IMG/VR virus record: IMGVR_UViG_2690316109_000023
DNA length: 7,041 nucleotides
Origin: a virus
Lineage: Duplodnaviria; Heunggongvirae; Uroviricota; Caudoviricetes
Strand: one strand, 5' to 3'
Below are positions 1-7,041 of this stretch, in pieces; the stretch's first letter is position 1; every line of letters starts with the position of its first letter. The notes below the pieces were generated by a model, which was not told the origin of the DNA, did not search any database, and saw only the letters and a list, made by a program, of their open reading frames with translations. Position numbers and translations under genes: made by a program.

Positions 1-360
1 CGTAAAAAATACCGCAAAAACGCGGTCTGGGTGGTTAACTCCACGACGGCGGCAAAACTTCAGAAGGTGAAGAACGCGAACGGTGATTACATCTGGCGCG
101 ACCGTTTACAGGCGGGTGATCCTGATACGTTGCTGGGCCTTCCGGTCGAATATCTGGAGTTTATGCCTGATAACGTTATTGCCCTGGGTGACTTCAAACG
201 CGGTTACTACATTGTTGATCACGAAACAGGTGTTCGCACCAGACCGGACAACCTCACAGAGCCGGGCTTCATCAAAATTTTCACGCAGAAATATTTAGGC
301 GGTGGCGTGGTGGATTCGAACGCGATCAAGATTCTGGAACTGCCACAGGACGACGATTAA
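1..360 (+). CDS. Major capsid protein, HK97 family (C-terminal part; 5' end is outside the window)
   Basis: Frame 1 is open from base 1 to TAA at 358-360. The translation contains LLGLPVEYLEFMP and GDFKRGYYIVDHE, which resemble the conserved C-terminal motifs of HK97-fold capsid proteins as I remember them (LLG.PV...MP and GDF.RGY.IVDR). Sits in a head-gene cluster. Confidence 0.8.
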   Translation, partial: RKKYRKNAVWVVNSTTAAKLQKVKNANGDYIWRDRLQAGDPDTLLGLPVEYLEFMPDNVIALGDFKRGYYIVDHETGVRTRPDNLTEPGFIKIFTQKYLGGGVVDSNAIKILELPQDDD

Positions 361-370
361 CAGCATACAG

Positions 371-399
371 AAGGGGCTTAAAAGCCCCTTTAGTGTTTT
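371..399 (+). terminator. Candidate rho-independent terminator / attenuator after the capsid gene
   Basis: Inverted repeat AAGGGGCT (371-378) / AGCCCCTT (383-390) with loop TTAA, followed by the T-rich TTTAGTGTTTTA. The U-tract is interrupted, so termination is probably partial. Confidence 0.4.
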
Positions 400-414
400 A
401 TGGGTGAAAAAATT

Positions 415-972
415 ATGAAGAGTATGGAAATCCGGTCATCGGAAATCACTACCAGCGGAGCCGGTACGCTGACGGGCTACGTTGTTCGCTGGGATAAGCT
501 TTCAGAACTGCTATGGGGGGAGTTTTACGAAAAATTCCAGCGGGGGGCGTTTACTGAGTGGCTTGCGGCGGGTAATGACGTTCGCGGCCTGTATGAGCAT
601 GACCACAGCATGTTACTGGGGCGCACCCGTTCCGGCACGCTGAAACTGGAAGAGGACGAAACAGGGTTACGCTTTGAACTGACCCCACCGGATACCAGTA
701 CAGGGCGCGACGTTATCGAACTGGTTAAACGAGGTGATATATCCGGCATGAGCTTTGGCTTTCGTTCCCGTAAGGATGTATGGGATACCACAACAGATCC
801 ATGCGTGCGCACCGTGCTGGTGGCGGAACTATACGAAATTACCGTTACATCCGTACCGGCTTACCCTGATTCCGGCGTGGAGCTGGCCCGCCGCTCCCTG
901 TACGAGCAGCACCCCGAAAAAATGCCGCGTGCGGATAATCGCCGCTGGTGGGCGGATTTAGCGGGGGTGTGA
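415..972 (+). CDS. Prohead maturation protease, HK97 family (peptidase S78/U35)
   Basis: The translation contains HDHSMLLGRTRSGTL and KRGDISGMSFGF, typical of HK97 prohead proteases. Start is ambiguous: ATG at 400 has no RBS, ATG at 415 has GGTGA 7 nt upstream, ATG at 424 is also in frame. Stop TGA 970-972 lies 1 nt before the portal ATG. Confidence 0.85.
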   Translation: MKSMEIRSSEITTSGAGTLTGYVVRWDKLSELLWGEFYEKFQRGAFTEWLAAGNDVRGLYEHDHSMLLGRTRSGTLKLEEDETGLRFELTPPDTSTGRDVIELVKRGDISGMSFGFRSRKDVWDTTTDPCVRTVLVAELYEITVTSVPAYPDSGVELARRSLYEQHPEKMPRADNRRWWADLAGV

Positions 973-973
973 T

Positions 974-2185
974 ATGTGGCCTTTCAGAAGAAAAAAAGAG
1001 CAGCGCAGCATGACGCTTGATGAGTTTATGGCGCTGGCTGGCACATCGAACACGGGGGCGGGTGAGTACGTATCATCGGGGACAGCGGAATCACTGCCCG
1101 CCGTCATGAACGCCGTCACGGTCATCTCTGAGGCGGTGGCTACCATGCCGTGTTACCTGTACCTGGTACGCAATGAGAAGGGGAAGGAGGCCCGAGAGTG
1201 GCTTGATTCTCATCCGGTCGATCACATCCTCAACGAGCGCCCGAACGCATGGCAGACCCCCTACCAGTTTAAGCGAATGATGATCCGCCACTGCCTGTTA
1301 AACGGTAATGCTTATGCGGTGATTCAGTGGGGGCGTGATGGTTTTCCGGTGGCTTTGCATCCTTACCCGCCGCAGTCGGTGAACGTGGAGCAGACAGGTG
1401 AGCATAACTGGCGCTACTGCATCACTGACGCCTACACCGGAAACACCCGCAACTATTTACCGTGGGAGGTTCTCCACCTTCGTTACTCCACGGATGACGG
1501 TTTTATGGGGCGCTCACCTGTAACCATCTGCCGCGAATCGCTGGGGCTTGGGCTGGCCCAACAACGCCACGGCGCGAGCGTGATGCGTGATGGCATGATG
1601 GCGGCAGGGGTTATCACGTCAGGCGAATGGCTGGACGGCGTGAAGGGCAAACAGGCATTAGCCGCACTGGAACGCTACAAAGGGGCCAGAAACGCCGGAA
1701 AAACGCCCATCCTTGAAGGGGGTATGAGCTATCAGCAGCTGGGCATGAGTAATCAGGATGCTGAATGGCTGGCCTCCCGTCGCTTCACCATTGAAGACAT
1801 CGCCCGAATGTTCAACGTCTCGCCGATTTTTTTGCAGGAATACAGCAACAGCACCTACAGCAATTTCAGCGAGGCAAGCCGCGCATTTCTCACCATGACG
1901 ATGCGCCCGTGGCTGGCGAACTTTGAGCAGCAGATAAAAAACGCCCTGCTGGTGGCCTCACCTGTACCTGGTATCCGGTATCAGGTGGAGTTTGACAGCG
2001 CGGACCTGTTACGGGCCACACCTGGCGAACGCTTTGCCACCTATGAACGCGGCATCAAATCCGGCGTTATGTGCCCGAACGAAGCCCGCGAACGTGAAGG
2101 GCTGTCCCCGCGTGATGGTGGTGATGAGTTCAGCCAGGCATGGAAACAGGAAGTAAAAATCAGCGAGGGAGAAAAACCGGAATGA
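974..2185 (+). CDS. Portal protein, HK97 family
   Basis: 403-aa ORF of portal-like size and composition, placed between protease and head-tail adaptor. GGGGG RBS upstream. Stop overlaps the next start (ATGA at 2182-2185). Confidence 0.88.
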   Translation: MWPFRRKKEQRSMTLDEFMALAGTSNTGAGEYVSSGTAESLPAVMNAVTVISEAVATMPCYLYLVRNEKGKEAREWLDSHPVDHILNERPNAWQTPYQFKRMMIRHCLLNGNAYAVIQWGRDGFPVALHPYPPQSVNVEQTGEHNWRYCITDAYTGNTRNYLPWEVLHLRYSTDDGFMGRSPVTICRESLGLGLAQQRHGASVMRDGMMAAGVITSGEWLDGVKGKQALAALERYKGARNAGKTPILEGGMSYQQLGMSNQDAEWLASRRFTIEDIARMFNVSPIFLQEYSNSTYSNFSEASRAFLTMTMRPWLANFEQQIKNALLVASPVPGIRYQVEFDSADLLRATPGERFATYERGIKSGVMCPNEAREREGLSPRDGGDEFSQAWKQEVKISEGEKPE

Positions 2186-2520
2186 ACATAGGGCGACTGC
2201 GTGACAGGGTAACGATTCAGACCCTGAAACAGACCAGGGATATAACCGGCGAAATACTCGAAACGTGGGAGGACGGTCACACACTCTGGGCAAGCGTGAA
2301 CATGATCAGCAGCAAGGAGGCCATTTCATCGGGTGCAGAGCTGGCGATTGGTACCGTAAGGATCTGGATACGGTACCGGAAGGACATCAACGCCACCAGC
2401 CGGATAAAGGTCAGTACGGGGCCGCTGGCGGGGCGTGTACTGAATATCATCGGGCAGCCGCTGCCGGATGCCGCCAGGACACGCCTTGAAATTCTTTGTC
2501 GTGAGGGCGCGGAAAAATGA
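2182..2520 (+). CDS. Head-tail adaptor / head closure protein (Phage_H_T_join-like)
   Basis: N-terminus MNIGRLRDRVTIQ matches the G.LR.RVTIQ signature of head-tail adaptors. GAGGGA RBS 11 nt upstream. ATG 2182 overlaps the portal stop. An in-frame ATG at 2140 is a less likely start because it lies inside the portal gene. Confidence 0.8.
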   Translation: MNIGRLRDRVTIQTLKQTRDITGEILETWEDGHTLWASVNMISSKEAISSGAELAIGTVRIWIRYRKDINATSRIKVSTGPLAGRVLNIIGQPLPDAARTRLEILCREGAEK

Positions 2521-2837
2521 CAGAAGAACTTATCACCCATATAACCGGCGAAATACTCGAAACGTGGGTGGACGGTCACACACTCTGGGCAAGCGTGAAC
2601 ATGATCAGCAGCAAGGAGGCCATTTCATCGGGTGCAGAACTGGCGACTGGAACGGTAAGGATATGGATACGCTACAGGAAGGACATCAACGCCACCAGCC
2701 GGATAAAGGTCAATACGGGGCCGCTGGCGGGGCGTGTACTGAATATCATCGGGCAGCCGCTGCCGGATGCCGCCAGGACACGCCTTGAAATTCTTTGTCG
2801 TGAGGGCGCGGAAAAATGACAGAAGAACTTATCACCC
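2240..2837 (+). repeat. Tandem direct duplication of a 299-bp unit (copy 1 2240-2538, copy 2 2539-2837), 290/299 identical
   Basis: Base-by-base alignment of the two copies gives 9 mismatches (copy 1 positions 2270, 2340, 2348, 2352, 2355, 2364, 2373, 2377, 2414). The unit runs from codon ~20 of the adaptor gene to codon 7 of the connector gene. Confidence 0.92.
2517..2819 (+). CDS. Chimeric duplicate ORF: first 7 codons of the gp6-like connector (MTEELIT) fused in frame to adaptor residues ~21-112; possibly a pseudogene or accessory paralog
   Basis: Created by the 299-bp tandem duplication. ATG 2517 overlaps the adaptor stop (ATGA) and its own stop overlaps the connector ATG at 2816. Differs from the parental adaptor by 3 amino acids (E to V, I to T, S to N). 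Confidence 0.5.
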   Translation: MTEELITHITGEILETWVDGHTLWASVNMISSKEAISSGAELATGTVRIWIRYRKDINATSRIKVNTGPLAGRVLNIIGQPLPDAARTRLEILCREGAEK

Positions 2838-3112
2838 TGGAAGAAGTGAAACTCCATTGCCGCATCGATGGCGACGAGGAAGACCAGTTAATCAGCGGAT
2901 ACATTGCCGCATCGCTTGAGGCGTGCCAGATACACATAGGCAGGCGCTTTGATGACGGGCTGGAGTTCACGCCAGCCATAAAGATTGGCTGCATGATGTT
3001 TATCGCTCACCTGTATGAAAATCGCCAGATTGTCGCGGATAACGCAAAAACACGCGTACCCATGACGATTGGTGCACTCTGGACGGCTTACCGTGATGTG
3101 GGGGTGTACTGA
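2816..3112 (+). CDS. gp6-like head-tail connector protein
   Basis: N-terminus MTEELITLEEVKLHCRIDGDEEDQLISGYIAA resembles the gp6-like head-tail connector family. Stop TGA 3110-3112 overlaps the HNH ATG at 3112. Confidence 0.8.
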   Translation: MTEELITLEEVKLHCRIDGDEEDQLISGYIAASLEACQIHIGRRFDDGLEFTPAIKIGCMMFIAHLYENRQIVADNAKTRVPMTIGALWTAYRDVGVY

Positions 3113-3552
3113 TGCCGTGGCAACCATTAAGACGATGCACAGAACCAGGCTGTAACAGGCGCGTGAAGTCCGGCAAGTGTGAGGAGCACAGGCGGGCGGC
3201 ATGGCGTGCAGAGGATGCCAGACGAGGACACCGCCGCGCGCGTGGGTACTCCAGACAGTGGGAAAAATACCGCGCCATGTATCTGAGTAAAAACCCGTTA
3301 TGCGTGCGATGCCTTGAGAAGGGGATATATACGCCCGCCGTGGTGGTGGATCACATTATCCCGATTAATGGCGGTGATGATGTTCTCTTCTGGCCCGAAT
3401 GGAACCATCAGCCATTGTGCCAGGCGTGTCATAACCAGAAAACGAAGTGGCTTGATCCGGCAACAAAAAGCAAGCGTGCCGCTGGCGGATTCCGTGAGGA
3501 GGAAGAACGGGCCGCTAACCGCAATAACTGGATGTATGACGCTGATGAATGA
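3112..3552 (+). CDS. HNH endonuclease (terminase-associated)
   Basis: Cysteine pairs CTEPGC and CVRC, plus VVDHIIP and NHQPLCQACHNQKT, form an HNH/zinc-finger motif set. Located immediately upstream of terS/terL as in HNH-cos packaging systems. Confidence 0.88.
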   Translation: MPWQPLRRCTEPGCNRRVKSGKCEEHRRAAWRAEDARRGHRRARGYSRQWEKYRAMYLSKNPLCVRCLEKGIYTPAVVVDHIIPINGGDDVLFWPEWNHQPLCQACHNQKTKWLDPATKSKRAAGGFREEEERAANRNNWMYDADE

Positions 3553-3718
3553 GCGGGAACAAAACCGCCTTATCCGTGGACTTATAAGGCAGCGTGACGC
3601 ATGGAAGACACAGGAAACAGGGCATAAAGATAAAGCGTCAGGACGCGCAGAACGCATCACAGCGAAGCGATTAACCGACCGTGACCGCGAGGTTATGGAA
3701 TGTTTCCGCAATCGCTGA
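3545..3718 (+). CDS. Hypothetical small basic protein (57 aa)
   Basis: ORF MNEREQNRLIRGLIRQRDAWK... starts at an ATG overlapping the HNH stop (ATGAATGA), suggesting translational coupling. An in-frame ATG at 3536 is an alternative start. No recognisable domain. Confidence 0.35.
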   Translation: MNEREQNRLIRGLIRQRDAWKTQETGHKDKASGRAERITAKRLTDRDREVMECFRNR

Positions 3719-3842
3719 TGAGGCTGTATGACGGGGTGGGGGGGCGTTTTCAGGACAAACCCGACCCCGCCGGGCACCGAACGCCTCCTCAAATTTTTAT
3801 GCACGGGAATTTTTTGAAAAATAATCTGGCGAAAAAATAAGC
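3719..3842. other. Intergenic region between the HNH-side genes and terS; candidate cos/packaging site
   Basis: G-rich ACGGGGTGGGGGGG (3731-3744) and C-rich CCCGACCCCGCC (3760-3771) form an imperfect inverted repeat (CGGGGTGGGG vs reverse complement CGGGGTCGGG) around an 18-bp spacer, followed by AT-rich DNA. Its position matches where cos lies in HK97-type HNH-dependent systems. Confidence 0.25.
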
Positions 3843-4199
3843 ATGGCAAGACCACCGAAAGCCCCCGCCTACCTGGATGATATCGCCGTGAAGCAGTGGC
3901 GGGAAAAATCGCGGCAGCTTGCGGAACGGGGAGACCTTACCCCCGCCGACTGGAGTAATCTGGAACTGTATTGCGTCAATTACTCGATATACCGGAAAGC
4001 CGTCGCAGACCTTGCGGCACGCGGGTTCAGCATTGTTAACAGTCAGGGCGGCGAGAGCAGAAACCCCGCATTAAGCGCAAAATCCGACGCTGAAAGAGTG
4101 ATGATAAAAATGGCCTCCTTGCTCGGTTTTGACCCGGTAAGCCGCCGTAAAAATCCACCGGAAACAGAAGAAGAGGACGAGCTTGACCGCCTGGAATAA
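3843..4199 (+). CDS. Terminase small subunit (P27 family-like)
   Basis: 118-aa ORF starting MARPPKAPAYLD with an acidic C-terminal tail (ETEEEDELDRLE), immediately upstream of and overlapping the large terminase. Confidence 0.8.
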   Translation: MARPPKAPAYLDDIAVKQWREKSRQLAERGDLTPADWSNLELYCVNYSIYRKAVADLAARGFSIVNSQGGESRNPALSAKSDAERVMIKMASLLGFDPVSRRKNPPETEEEDELDRLE

Positions 4200-5844
4200 G
4201 TACGCAGAAGACGTAAAAACGGGCAAAATTCCGGCCTGTAAACGGTTAAAACAGGCTGTTAAACGGTACTTTTCGGACCTTAAAAGCCCCCTTTACACGT
4301 TCGATCGTGAGGTTGTGGAGCGGTTTATTGCCTTTTCCAGGGTGTGCCCGCACGTAAAAGGGCCGATGCGTGGCAGACCCATTGAGCTGGAGCCGTGGCA
4401 GCAGTTCGCCTTTGCGTGCATCCTCGGCTTTAAGGTTAAGGCCACCGGACGGCGCAAATACACGAGCGCCTTTATCGAAGTGCCGCGCAAAAATGCGAAA
4501 TCCACGACCGCCGCGATTCTGGCTGACTGGTTTCTGATTATGGAGAACGGTCAGCAGGATATTTACACCGCAGCGGTGAGCCGTGACCAGGCGCGGATCG
4601 TCTTTGATGATGCGCGTCAGATGTGCCTTTTATCCCGACCGTTACGCAGGCGGGTGAATATTCAGGCGCATAAGGTGATACACCCGAAAAGCAACAGCCT
4701 GTTAAAGCCGCTGGCAGCAAAAGCGGCAACCATCGAGGGAACAAACCCCAGCCTTTCCATCGTGGACGAATACCACTTGCACCCCGATAACGGCGTTTAT
4801 TCCGCGCTTGAGCTGGGGATGGGCGCACGTCCCGAAGGGCTGTTATTTGCCATTACCACATCAGGCAGCAACGTCGTTTCAGCCTGTAAGCAGCACTATG
4901 ATTATTGCTGCCAGATCCTGGACGGCGAAGAGGTTAACGATTCAATTTTTGTACTGATTTACGAACTGGACGACGAAAACGAGGTTGATGATCCGGCGAT
5001 GTGGATAAAGGCGAACCCTAATATTGATGTTTCCGTGGATCGTGAAAAACTGGCCTCAACCATCCAGAAAGCGCGGGGTATTCCGTCGCAGTGGGTGGAG
5101 ATGATGACAAAGCGATTTAATATCTGGTGTCAGGGGACTACCCCGTGGATGGGTAACGGCGCATGGGCTGAGTGTGCCGGAACGTTCACGGAGGAAGATT
5201 TACACGGCCAGGAGTGTTACGCGGGGCTGGATTTATCATCCACAAGCGATATTTCCAGCGTGTGCTATGCCTTTCCGGTCGGTAAAACCATTATGCTGGT
5301 TTCCCGTCATTATCTGCCGGAGTTCCAGCTACAGAACCCCGCCAATAAAAACCGCGCTGTCTATCGTCAGTGGGCTAAAGCAGGCTGGATACGCACAACG
5401 CCAGGTGACTGCATTGATTACGACCGGATCAGAGATGACATCATGCAGGACGCGGAGAAATTTAATATCAGGCTGGTGGGCTTTGATACGTGGAACGCCA
5501 CGCATCTCAGGACGCAATTACAGGGGGCTGGTTTTGAGGTGGAGCCGTTCCCGCAAACCTACCTCAGATTCAGTCCGGCGGCGAAATCGTTCGAAGTTTT
5601 TGTTAACCGCAGGGTGATTGTGCATCGTGGCGATCCGGTGTTGTCCTGGTCGATGAGTAACGTCGTGATGCAGAGTGACGCGAACGCCAATATCAAGCCG
5701 AACAAGAAAAAATCACCGAACAAGATAGACCCGAGCGTGGCGGCGCTGATGGCGTTTGGTACATTCCAGGCAGAGCATGAGGATTTTGCTTTTGATATAA
5801 GCGACAGCCACCGCCAGAAACTGGAAGAATTTAGCGGGGTGTAA
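4183..5844 (+). CDS. Terminase large subunit (HK97-type)
   Basis: 553-aa ORF of TerL size placed directly after terS. The first in-frame start is TTG at 4183, overlapping the terS 3' end by 17 nt; the next in-frame Met is ~60 codons downstream, so the TTG start is the likely one. Confidence 0.88.
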   Translation: MTAWNKYAEDVKTGKIPACKRLKQAVKRYFSDLKSPLYTFDREVVERFIAFSRVCPHVKGPMRGRPIELEPWQQFAFACILGFKVKATGRRKYTSAFIEVPRKNAKSTTAAILADWFLIMENGQQDIYTAAVSRDQARIVFDDARQMCLLSRPLRRRVNIQAHKVIHPKSNSLLKPLAAKAATIEGTNPSLSIVDEYHLHPDNGVYSALELGMGARPEGLLFAITTSGSNVVSACKQHYDYCCQILDGEEVNDSIFVLIYELDDENEVDDPAMWIKANPNIDVSVDREKLASTIQKARGIPSQWVEMMTKRFNIWCQGTTPWMGNGAWAECAGTFTEEDLHGQECYAGLDLSSTSDISSVCYAFPVGKTIMLVSRHYLPEFQLQNPANKNRAVYRQWAKAGWIRTTPGDCIDYDRIRDDIMQDAEKFNIRLVGFDTWNATHLRTQLQGAGFEVEPFPQTYLRFSPAAKSFEVFVNRRVIVHRGDPVLSWSMSNVVMQSDANANIKPNKKKSPNKIDPSVAALMAFGTFQAEHEDFAFDISDSHRQKLEEFSGV

Positions 5845-5857
5845 TGAGGTCAGCAGC

Positions 5858-6139
5858 ATGACAGAAGCCGAAATAACGGGATTAATCCGCCGCGTTGCCG
5901 GAATCAGCCAGCAGGCTGACGAACAGGCCACGCAGCCGGACAGCGTGACAGCCGAAAACTATGCGCGTGTTGTTGCTGAGGTGATGCGCCGTGATGGTAT
6001 AGAACTTAATGGCGTGGATATGCGCAACATACGAACCAGAGTTCTTGAGTTGCTGGCCTACCGTCGCCGCGTGGAGATGTATCGGGAGAAGGAGAAAATA
6101 ACGTACCACTGGAAGAAGCCGGAGCGGTTGCGGCGGTAA
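5858..6139 (+). CDS. Hypothetical protein (93 aa), last gene of the module
   Basis: ATG 5858 with GAGG 8 nt upstream, 13 nt after the terL stop. Charged, arginine-rich C-terminus. No recognisable domain. Confidence 0.5.
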   Translation: MTEAEITGLIRRVAGISQQADEQATQPDSVTAENYARVVAEVMRRDGIELNGVDMRNIRTRVLELLAYRRRVEMYREKEKITYHWKKPERLRR

Positions 6140-6289
6140 CTGGTTGATATTCCCGACGGACCAAAAATGGGTGGCTACATCCCTCGCTTCTGAGGACTGT
6201 TAACAAGCTGCCTGAAAGACAGTCACAAACTACGAAATTTTCGCAGTTTAATTAATGATCAGCTTAATCGCTAACCCGCAGATATTTTC

Positions 6290-6700
6290 GGAAACCTCAA
6301 TTTGAGGAAGTCGGCGCGGTAACTCGCTGAACTTTAAGCAAAGCGCAAAATTGCGCTTGCTGAATAATCATTATGATTACGCAGATGATTAAGGAATGAC
6401 CGAAGGCGGAAATTCGCCTGTGGTTAATGGGGGAGTTGCAGATCTGCAACTCGACCATGAAACTACGGAAACTACCCGTAGTTTGGGTAGTAAGAGTAAC
6501 ACCCAGATTTTGGGTCTTACTCGTGATACCCAAATTTGGGGTATCAGTGGCAACCATAACGACTTTCGTTACGGTTGATGCTTTTACCCCATTGGGGGAA
6601 AGGTATTACGATAATCATAACACCTACCGAACAGGTAAAGCCCACCAGCCTGATTAACGTTTAACCGGAAAAAAATTCCGGTAGGTGGGGATCCCCATAT
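6290..6700. other. Hairpin/palindrome-dense non-coding region
   Basis: At least ten dyad elements in ~400 bp: 6295-6307, 6341-6358, 6405-6418, 6433-6452 (perfect 20-mer), 6463-6491, 6494-6522, 6525-6545, 6551-6577, 6587-6597, 6664-6682, 6686-6697 (perfect 12-mer). ORFs in this region are rich in rare codons and lack RBSs. Confidence 0.6.
6433..6452. promoter_or_regulatory. Perfect 20-bp palindrome GAGTTGCAGATCTGCAACTC; candidate dimeric-protein binding site
   Basis: Exact reverse-complement symmetry over 20 bp, verified base by base. Confidence 0.4.
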
Positions 6701-6808
6701 CGACATTAACGCCCCTCATGAATTGGTGCGCTTCCCCCTGGAAAGATGATCCGCCTGTATATTTCTTGTGTCTATTTGTTCCACGTTGTTTCATACAGTG
6801 CACCGAAC

Positions 6809-6832
6809 GGTGTAGTCACTGGTGTAGTCATT
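6809..6832 (+). repeat. Tandem 12-bp direct repeat GGTGTAGTCACT / GGTGTAGTCATT; candidate recombinase arm-type or regulator binding sites
   Basis: 11/12 identical adjacent repeats about 75-95 bp inside the putative element end. Confidence 0.4.
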
Positions 6833-6876
6833 TTGCGATTTTTGGCACTTTTTGTGGTGCAAATTATTTAATTAAA

Positions 6877-7041
6877 TCAATTAGTTAGGTTAAATAAGTT
6901 ATATATAACAGCAATAAATAATGCGAGAATAAACGGCACGATGATCTCGGCGGCAAAACGGATACCGCAGAGAATAATGACCAGCATTCCCAACATAATG
7001 ACGATTTTTAGGCCATTGAGCGTGATGATCGGCTTTGCCAT
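6877..7041 (-). pseudogene. tqsA: 5' fragment of an AI-2E family transporter gene (tqsA/ydgG-like): about 45 native codons, then 9 foreign codons and a stop
   Basis: Minus-strand ATG at 7039-7041 translates to [45 protein letters not shown], then IYNLFNLTN and stop (TGA complement at 6877-6879). The hydrophobic N-terminus matches my recollection of E. coli TqsA. Sequence becomes AT-rich and non-coding exactly where the match ends (~6906). Confidence 0.55.

Follow-up and report, generated by a model that had tools for sequence, protein, structure and literature searches.

A conserved hairpin-rich non-coding tail behind the late operon in PICI satellites of enterobacteria

In phage lambda, sib mediates retroregulation of int across attP, and in P4, crr is a directly repeated non-coding region. 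For REP sequences and BIMEs, the reported roles include mRNA stabilization, termination, insulation of supercoils, DNA structuring and IHF binding, and their copy number varies between loci (PMC3333891).

Here we analyze a stretch of 7,041 nucleotides (hereafter, the window) from the IMG/VR virus record IMGVR_UViG_2690316109_000023. An initial reading of the bare sequence (hereafter, the sequence-only reading) singled out about 400 bp, at positions 6290-6700, as densely packed hairpins and palindromes with no credible coding capacity. This region turns out to be the central part of a conserved non-coding stretch, the tail, at the close of the late operon in PICI satellites of enterobacteria.

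Among the described elements, the tail is most comparable to BIME-1/RIB (RIP) of Escherichia coli, in which REP palindromes flank an IHF-binding linker at the 3' ends of transcription units. Both lie outside genes where an operon ends; both consist of short imperfect palindromes combined as a mosaic, with arms that are variable but complementary; and both contain conserved linkers fitting the IHF consensus (in the case of the tail, a consensus match only), with a copy number that varies by locus (PMC3333891). The differences lie in the sequences and their arrangement. The REP consensus (GCCKGATGCGRCGY, up to three mismatches allowed) has no match in 6137-6900, and it matches the rest of the window no more often than by chance. 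The order in the tail is linker-hairpin-linker rather than palindrome-linker-palindrome, and the tail hairpins are of many unrelated sequences. Furthermore, the tail is found only in satellite tails, nearly always after a 93-aa ORF, whereas REP occurs in hundreds of dispersed copies. Because neither the REP sequence nor the dispersed distribution is found, the tail is likened to BIME-1/RIB by anatomy and is not a member of the BIME/REP family.

The host island and the extent of the tail

The window covers the right 7 kb of a ~15 kb capsid-forming PICI satellite inserted in tqsA of Escherichia coli. Its genes are, in order, the 3' end of the capsid gene, prohead protease, portal, head closure, head-tail connector, HNH endonuclease, small terminase, large terminase and the 93-aa ORF, followed by ~740 bp free of genes and then by the 5' fragment of tqsA (Table 1). 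A near-identical island is present in the O26:H11 strain 11368 (the reference; locus L001), with int, an HTH regulator and a P4-type primase at its start. The predicted gene set matches that described for the capsid-forming PICI EcCIEDL933 (10.1101/2022.09.08.507074).

The insertion splits tqsA, which encodes the autoinducer-2 exporter, between window positions 6877-7041 and L001 2991-3896. The probable att identity block common to attR of the window and attL of the O26 island is only ~9 bp long, and therefore tqsA is probably inactivated in the carriers of the island. The head-closure gene of the window contains a 299-bp tandem duplication (2240-2837; 2.0 copies, 96% identical) that covers most of the gene and results in two overlapping ORFs (2140-2520 and 2517-2819), compared with a single gene in the O26 reference island. 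The AlphaFold model of the 93-aa ORF consists of three helices (mean pLDDT 69); searches of the PDB by sequence and by fold yielded no match, and no Pfam family was identified. Assignment of this ORF as Rpp or another solved protein was dropped because neither type of PDB match was obtained.

Table 1. Features of the 3' part of the window
Feature	Coordinates	Strand	Basis or remark
Conserved 93-aa ORF, phrog_1561 (function unknown), last gene of the late/packaging operon	5858-6139	+	PHROG match; followed by the tail in nearly all fetched loci
Unit 1, from GCGGTAACT (6133-6141) to the next GCGGTAACT (6316-6324)	6133-6324	+	
Linker motif M1 TATCAACCAGTTA, perfect match to IHF consensus WATCARNNNNTTR	6137-6149	-	consensus match; overlaps the stop of the 93-aa ORF
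Unit 1: weak A-loop hairpin	6160-6172		
Unit 1: CCTC..GAGG	6182-6195		
Unit 1: GACTGT..ACAGTC	6195-6224		
Unit 1: AAACTACGAAATTTTCGCAGTTT	6227-6249		
Unit 1: second IHF-like motif TAACCCGCAGATA	6272-6284		one mismatch; consensus base (CTGATA) in related islands
Unit 1: hairpin CCTCAATTTGAGG	6295-6307		
Unit 2	6316-6400	+	
Unit 2: degenerate linker TAACTCGCTGAAC	6320-6332		
Unit 2: A-loop hairpin AAGCGCAAAATTGCGCTT, dyad AAGCGCAA-AA-TTGCGCTT	6341-6358		
Unit 2: TAATCATTATGATTA	6365-6379		
Unit 2: third arm copy ATGATTA	6385-6391		
Larger-hairpin module	6404-6591	+	same hairpins in Salmonella and Citrobacter islands, loops variable
Larger-hairpin module: dyad AGGCGGAAATTCGCCT	6404-6419		
Larger-hairpin module: 20-bp perfect palindrome GAGTTGCAGATCTGCAACTC	6433-6452		within ATGG/CCAT outer stem
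Larger-hairpin module: AAACTACGG..CCGTAGTTT	6460-6484		
Larger-hairpin module: three-tier hairpin	6485-6533		
Larger-hairpin module: TGATACCC..GGGTATCA	6524-6546		
12-bp palindrome CCCAAATTTGGG	6529-6540		
Larger-hairpin module: CAACC/TAACGA..TCGTTA/GGTTG	6553-6576		
Most widely shared tail end	6592-6700	+	
Shared tail end: CCCC-ATT-GGGG	6586-6596		
Shared tail end: ACCT..AGGT			
15-nt motif ATCAGGCTGGTGGGC	6640-6654	-	contains Chi (GCTGGTGG)
Shared tail end: hairpin ACCGGAAAAAAATTCCGGT, dyad ACCGGAA-AAAAA-TTCCGGT	6664-6682		
Shared tail end: 12-bp palindrome TGGGGATCCCCA	6686-6697		
attP P-arm: TTGTTCCACGTTGT and two direct GGTGTAGTCA repeats (6809-6818, 6821-6830)	6759-6834	+	mirrored at attL
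Weak terminator-like hairpin GCACTTTTTGTGGTGC, then A/T-rich tail	6845-6860	+	consensus scan only
Perfect IHF consensus AATCAATTAGTTA, beside the att core	6875-6887	+	consensus match
tqsA 5' fragment (autoinducer-2 transporter), interrupted by the island	6877-7041	-	
Probable att identity block ATAACAGCA, island end	6905-6913	.	attR here vs attL of the O26 island, by eye

The non-coding tail extends from the stop codon of the 93-aa ORF at 6137 to ~6700, short of the attP arm. Thus, the hairpin tract delineated at 6290-6700 is genuine but was drawn too narrowly, the same type of sequence starting already at 6137. Every dyad named in the sequence-only reading was found within 6290-6700, including the perfect palindromes of 20 and 12 bp. 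With perfect hairpins defined by a stem of at least 6 and a loop of at most 10, this region contains 12, compared with 0.99 ± 1.02 in 500 dinucleotide shuffles (maximum 5) and with 1.0 per 411 bp in the coding part of the window (1-6139), in agreement with the claim that the dyads are far denser here than in the flanking coding DNA. RNA folding of the same region gives -166.5 kcal/mol for the + strand (z -9.65) and -162.9 kcal/mol for the - strand (z -11.7), values that no shuffle reached.

The three ORFs in the hairpin region have no match in Pfam or PHROG, and no gene is annotated there by RefSeq in the O26 reference; in one related locus, a 52-aa hypothetical CDS is annotated within the tail. 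When homologous tails are compared, they are found to differ in entire modules and in indels whose lengths are not divisible by three. Because of these differences and the lack of family matches for the ORFs, the hairpin region is considered non-coding, as originally proposed.

Further repeats were noted in and around the tail. Four ACTAC arms with an exact 9-nt spacing, two direct and two inverted, are located at 6460-6495 (AAACTACGG, AAACTACCC, GTAGTTTGG and GTAGTAAGA) and allow alternative hairpins; one of the arms is missing in the diverged island L162. The Chi-containing 15-nt motif has an inverted copy at 5467-5481 (+) in terL, the pair bracketing the 93-aa ORF and most of the tail, and a third copy is found at L001 6107-6129. 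In this orientation of the pair, RecBCD entering from a break between the copies would presumably meet active Chi. The 7-kb window contains 7 Chi octamers.

Linkers and co-varying hairpins

The tail is a mosaic of units, each consisting of a linker that fits the IHF consensus, always in the same orientation, and, after it, short hairpins whose stems are GC-rich and whose loops are AT-rich; between copies, the stems change yet remain paired. Each unit starts with GCGGTAACT, a copy of the last codons and the stop of the 93-aa ORF, and the islands hold one to six units of ~52 to 217 nt each. The reverse complement of the recurrent linker motif, TAAC-NNN-YTGATWTT, corresponds to the IHF consensus. 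Across 40 distinct tails, this motif is matched perfectly 70 times and always in the same direction, compared with 1.8 times in shuffles; the copies are related, so that the count is not to be read as a probability. TAA and TGA are invariant, the rest of YTGATW is less strictly kept, and the four intervening bases vary; this pattern of conservation fits that of IHF, and the linkers are predicted IHF sites. About a third of the linker copies are degenerate, and the linkers of the window range from perfect to degenerate (Table 1). The perfect consensus match beside the att core is a predicted core-proximal IHF site, as expected at that position. Candidate sigma-70 promoters in the linker were dropped upon sequence inspection, being at chance level or missing key residues.

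In integrons, attC-type sites have inverted RYYYAAC and GTTRRRY cores that bracket a folded bottom strand, near the integron integrase. Some of the linkers contain GCCTAAC (by eye); no GTTRRRY partner was noticed, nor is there an IntI-type integrase.

A short hairpin is located ~6-10 nt beyond each linker. Hairpin A has an A-rich loop and a stem that is GCGCA/TGCGC, GTGCA/TGCAC, GCCCA/TGGGT, GGCCC/GGGCC or AGCTCA/TGAGCT. Among 21 distinct copies, 88% of the cells are paired, compared with at most 44% when the partner is slid, and both sides have changed in four of the six pairs. Hairpin C takes the forms CCTCAATTTGAGG, CCCCCATTGGGGG, CAGCCAACGGCTG and CCTGCAATGCAGG, and in Salmonella, ACTCAATTTGAGT; 96.9% of its cells are paired, and 16 cells carry a double change against 5.5 expected. 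The covariation scores, 0.291 for hairpin A (0.152 in shuffles) and 0.654 for hairpin C (0.151 in shuffles), were reached by none of the 500 shuffles in either case, with the qualification that these alignments consist of paralogous or mosaic copies, and some of the apparent compensation may reflect hairpin swaps or template-switch mutations. In the central module (6420-6552), the stems are mostly invariant from Escherichia to Citrobacter and the loops drift, GATACCC-N7-GGGTATC, for example, being found with five different loops; RNAalifold independently recovered the same helices. Thus, the dyads are kept in related elements and several co-vary. That the position is always occupied by a hairpin speaks for pairing, not sequence, as the object of selection. 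Tail modules are in some cases better conserved than the synonymous sites of the neighboring gene, for which recombination would account as readily as constraint; divergence of the tail relative to synonymous sites was therefore dropped as a measure of constraint, being confounded by mosaic recombination.

The same mosaic pattern, with its duplicated units and a unit number that varies from one to six, could instead have been produced by recombination at the 3' accessory hotspot of the islands, with the tail as a scaffold or scar. Unequal or homologous exchange would then be driven by the repeated GCGGTAACT and linker junctions, units and cargo would be gained and lost, and the palindromes would be sharpened by template-switch mutation instead of being maintained for a function. 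The 3' end of PICIs is known as an accessory region (PMC11364771), and in some islands, cargo, such as a Q antiterminator gene, lies within or after the array. This explanation would also accommodate the copy of the ORF 3' end that opens every unit and the symmetry that runs through the centers of palindromes (for example, AGATCT changed to AAATTT). We nevertheless consider it unlikely because hairpins with unrelated stems hold the same position relative to the linker, the linker retains the IHF-consensus positions while its spacer varies, stems are held and loops drift across three genera, and all tails tested are far more structured than their own shuffles.

The proposal that the tract is a structured RNA holds in so far as folding and covariation fit a structured single-stranded nucleic acid; assignment to an Rfam family failed, as the covariance models of Rfam 15 gave no match to the window (E<=1) and none to four tails from related loci (E<=0.1). 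No tRNA or tmRNA was found. Enrichment of CsrA-type GGA and likeness to boxB/nut or, for GGCGGTAA, to ops/RfaH were dropped upon sequence inspection, being at chance level or lacking key residues.

It is quite unlikely that the tail produces one or more trans-acting structured RNAs, be it a multi-hairpin decoy or sponge for an RNA-binding protein of the helper phage or the host, or a set of sRNAs. Such a role would be in line with the strong folding and covariation, with the repeated units that combine conserved single-stranded linkers and A-rich loops, and with the presence of a ProQ/FinO-family gene in some related islands. However, apart from the lack of an Rfam match, there is no convincing promoter or terminator around any unit, strand bias is absent, and the variable number and content of units are a poor fit to a defined RNA gene.

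The absence of strand bias comes from two observations. A census of single mismatches in the stems shows no excess of G-T over A-C (5 vs 11; about 5 vs 7 independent sites), and the folding energies of 12 tails do not consistently favor either strand. An assignment to the + strand made from a by-eye count of G-T and A-C mismatches was overturned by this unbiased census. Several dyads are perfect palindromes through the center, a symmetry that RNA folding does not need. Because the stem sequences vary and different stem variants coexist within one island, sequence-specific dimeric proteins are unlikely to be involved. The stems, at 5-9 bp, are also rather short to extrude as cruciforms.

With both strands folding equally well, no RNA-type wobble bias, and stems that co-vary instead of keeping their sequence, the hairpins might also act in single-stranded DNA, for example by directing priming by, or loading of, the P4-type primase-helicase or by serving as targets of structure-specific enzymes, with IHF as a cofactor, as in transfer or filamentous-phage origins. 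The islands do encode a primase and an SSB. This possibility appears highly improbable, given that the islands encode no relaxase or HUH enzyme, that their origin with TGTTCACC iterons is located elsewhere and the tail has no iteron, and that these satellites package double-stranded cos DNA (PMC6092414, PMC9026076).

Distribution of the tail and its relation to att, cos and origin sequences

Pieces of the tail (6140-6880) were detected in 1559 of 5426 complete E. coli genomes (about 29%), 1-6 times per genome, and also in PICIs of Salmonella enterica and Citrobacter freundii. In nearly all fetched loci, they are preceded by a homolog of the 93-aa ORF, whatever the packaging module or the integrase arm type. 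The exceptions are locus L085, whose tract includes a Q antiterminator gene, and a small number of viral contigs that have the end motif and no ORF match. In L085 (E. coli 2012EL-2448), the Q-family gene occupies 4155-4547 within the tail array, with linker motifs on either side, and the island also carries a ProQ/FinO-family gene. The tail-bearing islands include capsid-forming ones at tqsA and classical lambda-hijacking ones at tqsA, phoQ and clpS, with capsid/decoration/Rpp-like genes. Between the ORF and the shared end motif lie 228 to 734 nt, and the extracted tracts are 306-842 nt long. All twelve diverse tails that were folded are more stable than their shuffles (z -3 to -13, better strand). 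A DNA search of the phage collection with the tail gave no match, and no description of the tail was found in PICI papers or in full-text searches on palindromes, PICI with IHF, and prophage sRNAs.

The tail is also carried by a 10.8-kb circular episome in which the order is ORF-tail-attP-int. This element (L161; NZ_CP148328.1; 10,790 bp, circular) is deposited as a plasmid and has the gene set of a full PICI, namely, int, alpA, primase, a capsid-protease fusion, the 93-aa ORF, tail and attP, which suggests an excised satellite that was assembled as a replicon.

The sequence-only reading had also offered a replication or packaging origin and the arm region of the attachment site as functions of the tract; neither the origins nor the arm withstood comparison with related islands. 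In the O26 island, the origin follows the primase gene: the intergenic region at L001 9500-9740 contains many direct and inverted copies of TGTTCACC, the P4 type I iteron, suggesting a P4-like origin in this PICI family. Related islands share with P4 the type of primase and an origin with these iterons, whereas the whole window contains zero copies of TGTTCACC.

Similarly, the lambda-type cos of classical PICIs is a non-coding cis site in the same packaging region of the same elements, but there the cosN 12-mer GGGCGGCGACCT lies upstream of the 93-aa ORF, and its best match in the window has three mismatches, which is chance level. The cos-rpp arrangement of classical PICIs (cosN-cosB-rpp) has been reviewed (PMC9026076). 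In the capsid-forming island, the likely cos is the G-rich non-coding gap between the HNH and terS genes (3720-3842, GGGGTGGGGGGGCG...); comparison of the putative cos region (3540-3850) with the phage collection gave one uninformative match.

In the attP of a tyrosine integrase, both sides of the core share arm-type repeats that lie within about 250 bp of it. Here, these repeats are located further to the right and are absent from 6290-6700; a mirrored set flanks int at the opposite island end (L001 3976-4051 vs 18620-18695). A motif of the TTGTTCCACGTTGT type is present in both att arms (L001 3973-4007 and 18617-18651, the latter equivalent to window 6756-6790) and also upstream of the capsid operon (L001 11115-11149), and may be a shared binding site of an AlpA-type excision/activator protein. 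Since the tail adjoins the attP arm and contains several IHF-consensus sites in a single orientation, of the same type as the core-proximal site, it could be regarded as an extended P arm, in which the array of IHF sites would wrap the DNA and contribute to the assembly or regulation of the intasome during integration or excision. This is very unlikely: the IHF-like linkers of the window are ~570-770 bp from the core, much further out than any known arm extends; the arm-type repeats do not reach beyond 6759-6834; the tail portion that adjoins the arm and is shared most widely (6549-6700) lacks an IHF-type linker; and the covariation of the hairpins would be left unexplained. Moreover, the tail does not co-vary with the arm specificity of the integrase, as a Salmonella island (L164) combines different arm repeats (GTGTGGTCAGTT) with the same tail modules.

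A possible role at the end of the late operon

Among single-stranded nucleic acids, a transcript is the simplest candidate for the folded molecule because the tail lies directly 3' of the operon and the first terminator-like site on the + strand occurs only at 6845-6860, the sole such candidate between the operon and the att core. Within the hairpin region, a terminator scan found a single weak terminator-like site, on the - strand, and the scan counts are close to those of shuffles. No tail hairpin is followed by a U-tract, consistent with the original view that these are not simple terminators.

We tentatively favor the explanation that the tail is a cis element resembling BIME/RIB, located where the late operon ends, which would act through its hairpins in RNA and through IHF on DNA. 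Transcription of the late operon would place the hairpins in a long 3' untranslated RNA, where, once folded, they would protect the message against 3' exonucleases and dampen read-through, be it towards attP-int when the element is an excised circle or into host genes when it is integrated. Bound at the linkers, IHF would curve the DNA, forming an architectural or topological buffer beside the recombination site. In the excised circle, the order is operon-tail-attP-int, and therefore late transcription crosses the tail before int; in the integrated island, the tail separates the operon from host genes.

The lambda attP/sib region offers a partial parallel, being likewise a structured non-coding region that lies across attP from int, becomes linked to int only upon excision and has IHF sites nearby. 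However, the tail is upstream of int in the circle, not downstream, and is far longer than an attP arm.

Alternatively, the tail could represent a class of cis elements specific to satellites, read as folded single-stranded nucleic acid together with IHF, either as structure-specific sites that build and reshuffle the 3' cargo hotspot or as a signal needed for the cycle of excision, replication and packaging. We consider this improbable; if true, the tail would be a core, previously unrecognized part of PICI biology.

PICIs and capsid-forming PICIs carry virulence and defense genes between enterobacteria. They have been described almost wholly by their genes, and we found no description of conserved non-coding parts beyond att, ori and cos. 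The tail persists through changes of packaging strategy and integration site, and it sits where defense cargo inserts and where, in the excised form, late transcription meets attP and int. Should the tail be neutral, it would still provide a clear case of how palindrome-rich mosaics arise. If it controls the stability of the late message, read-through into int or the turnover of cargo, it would provide a new handle on satellite regulation as well as a useful marker for finding satellites.
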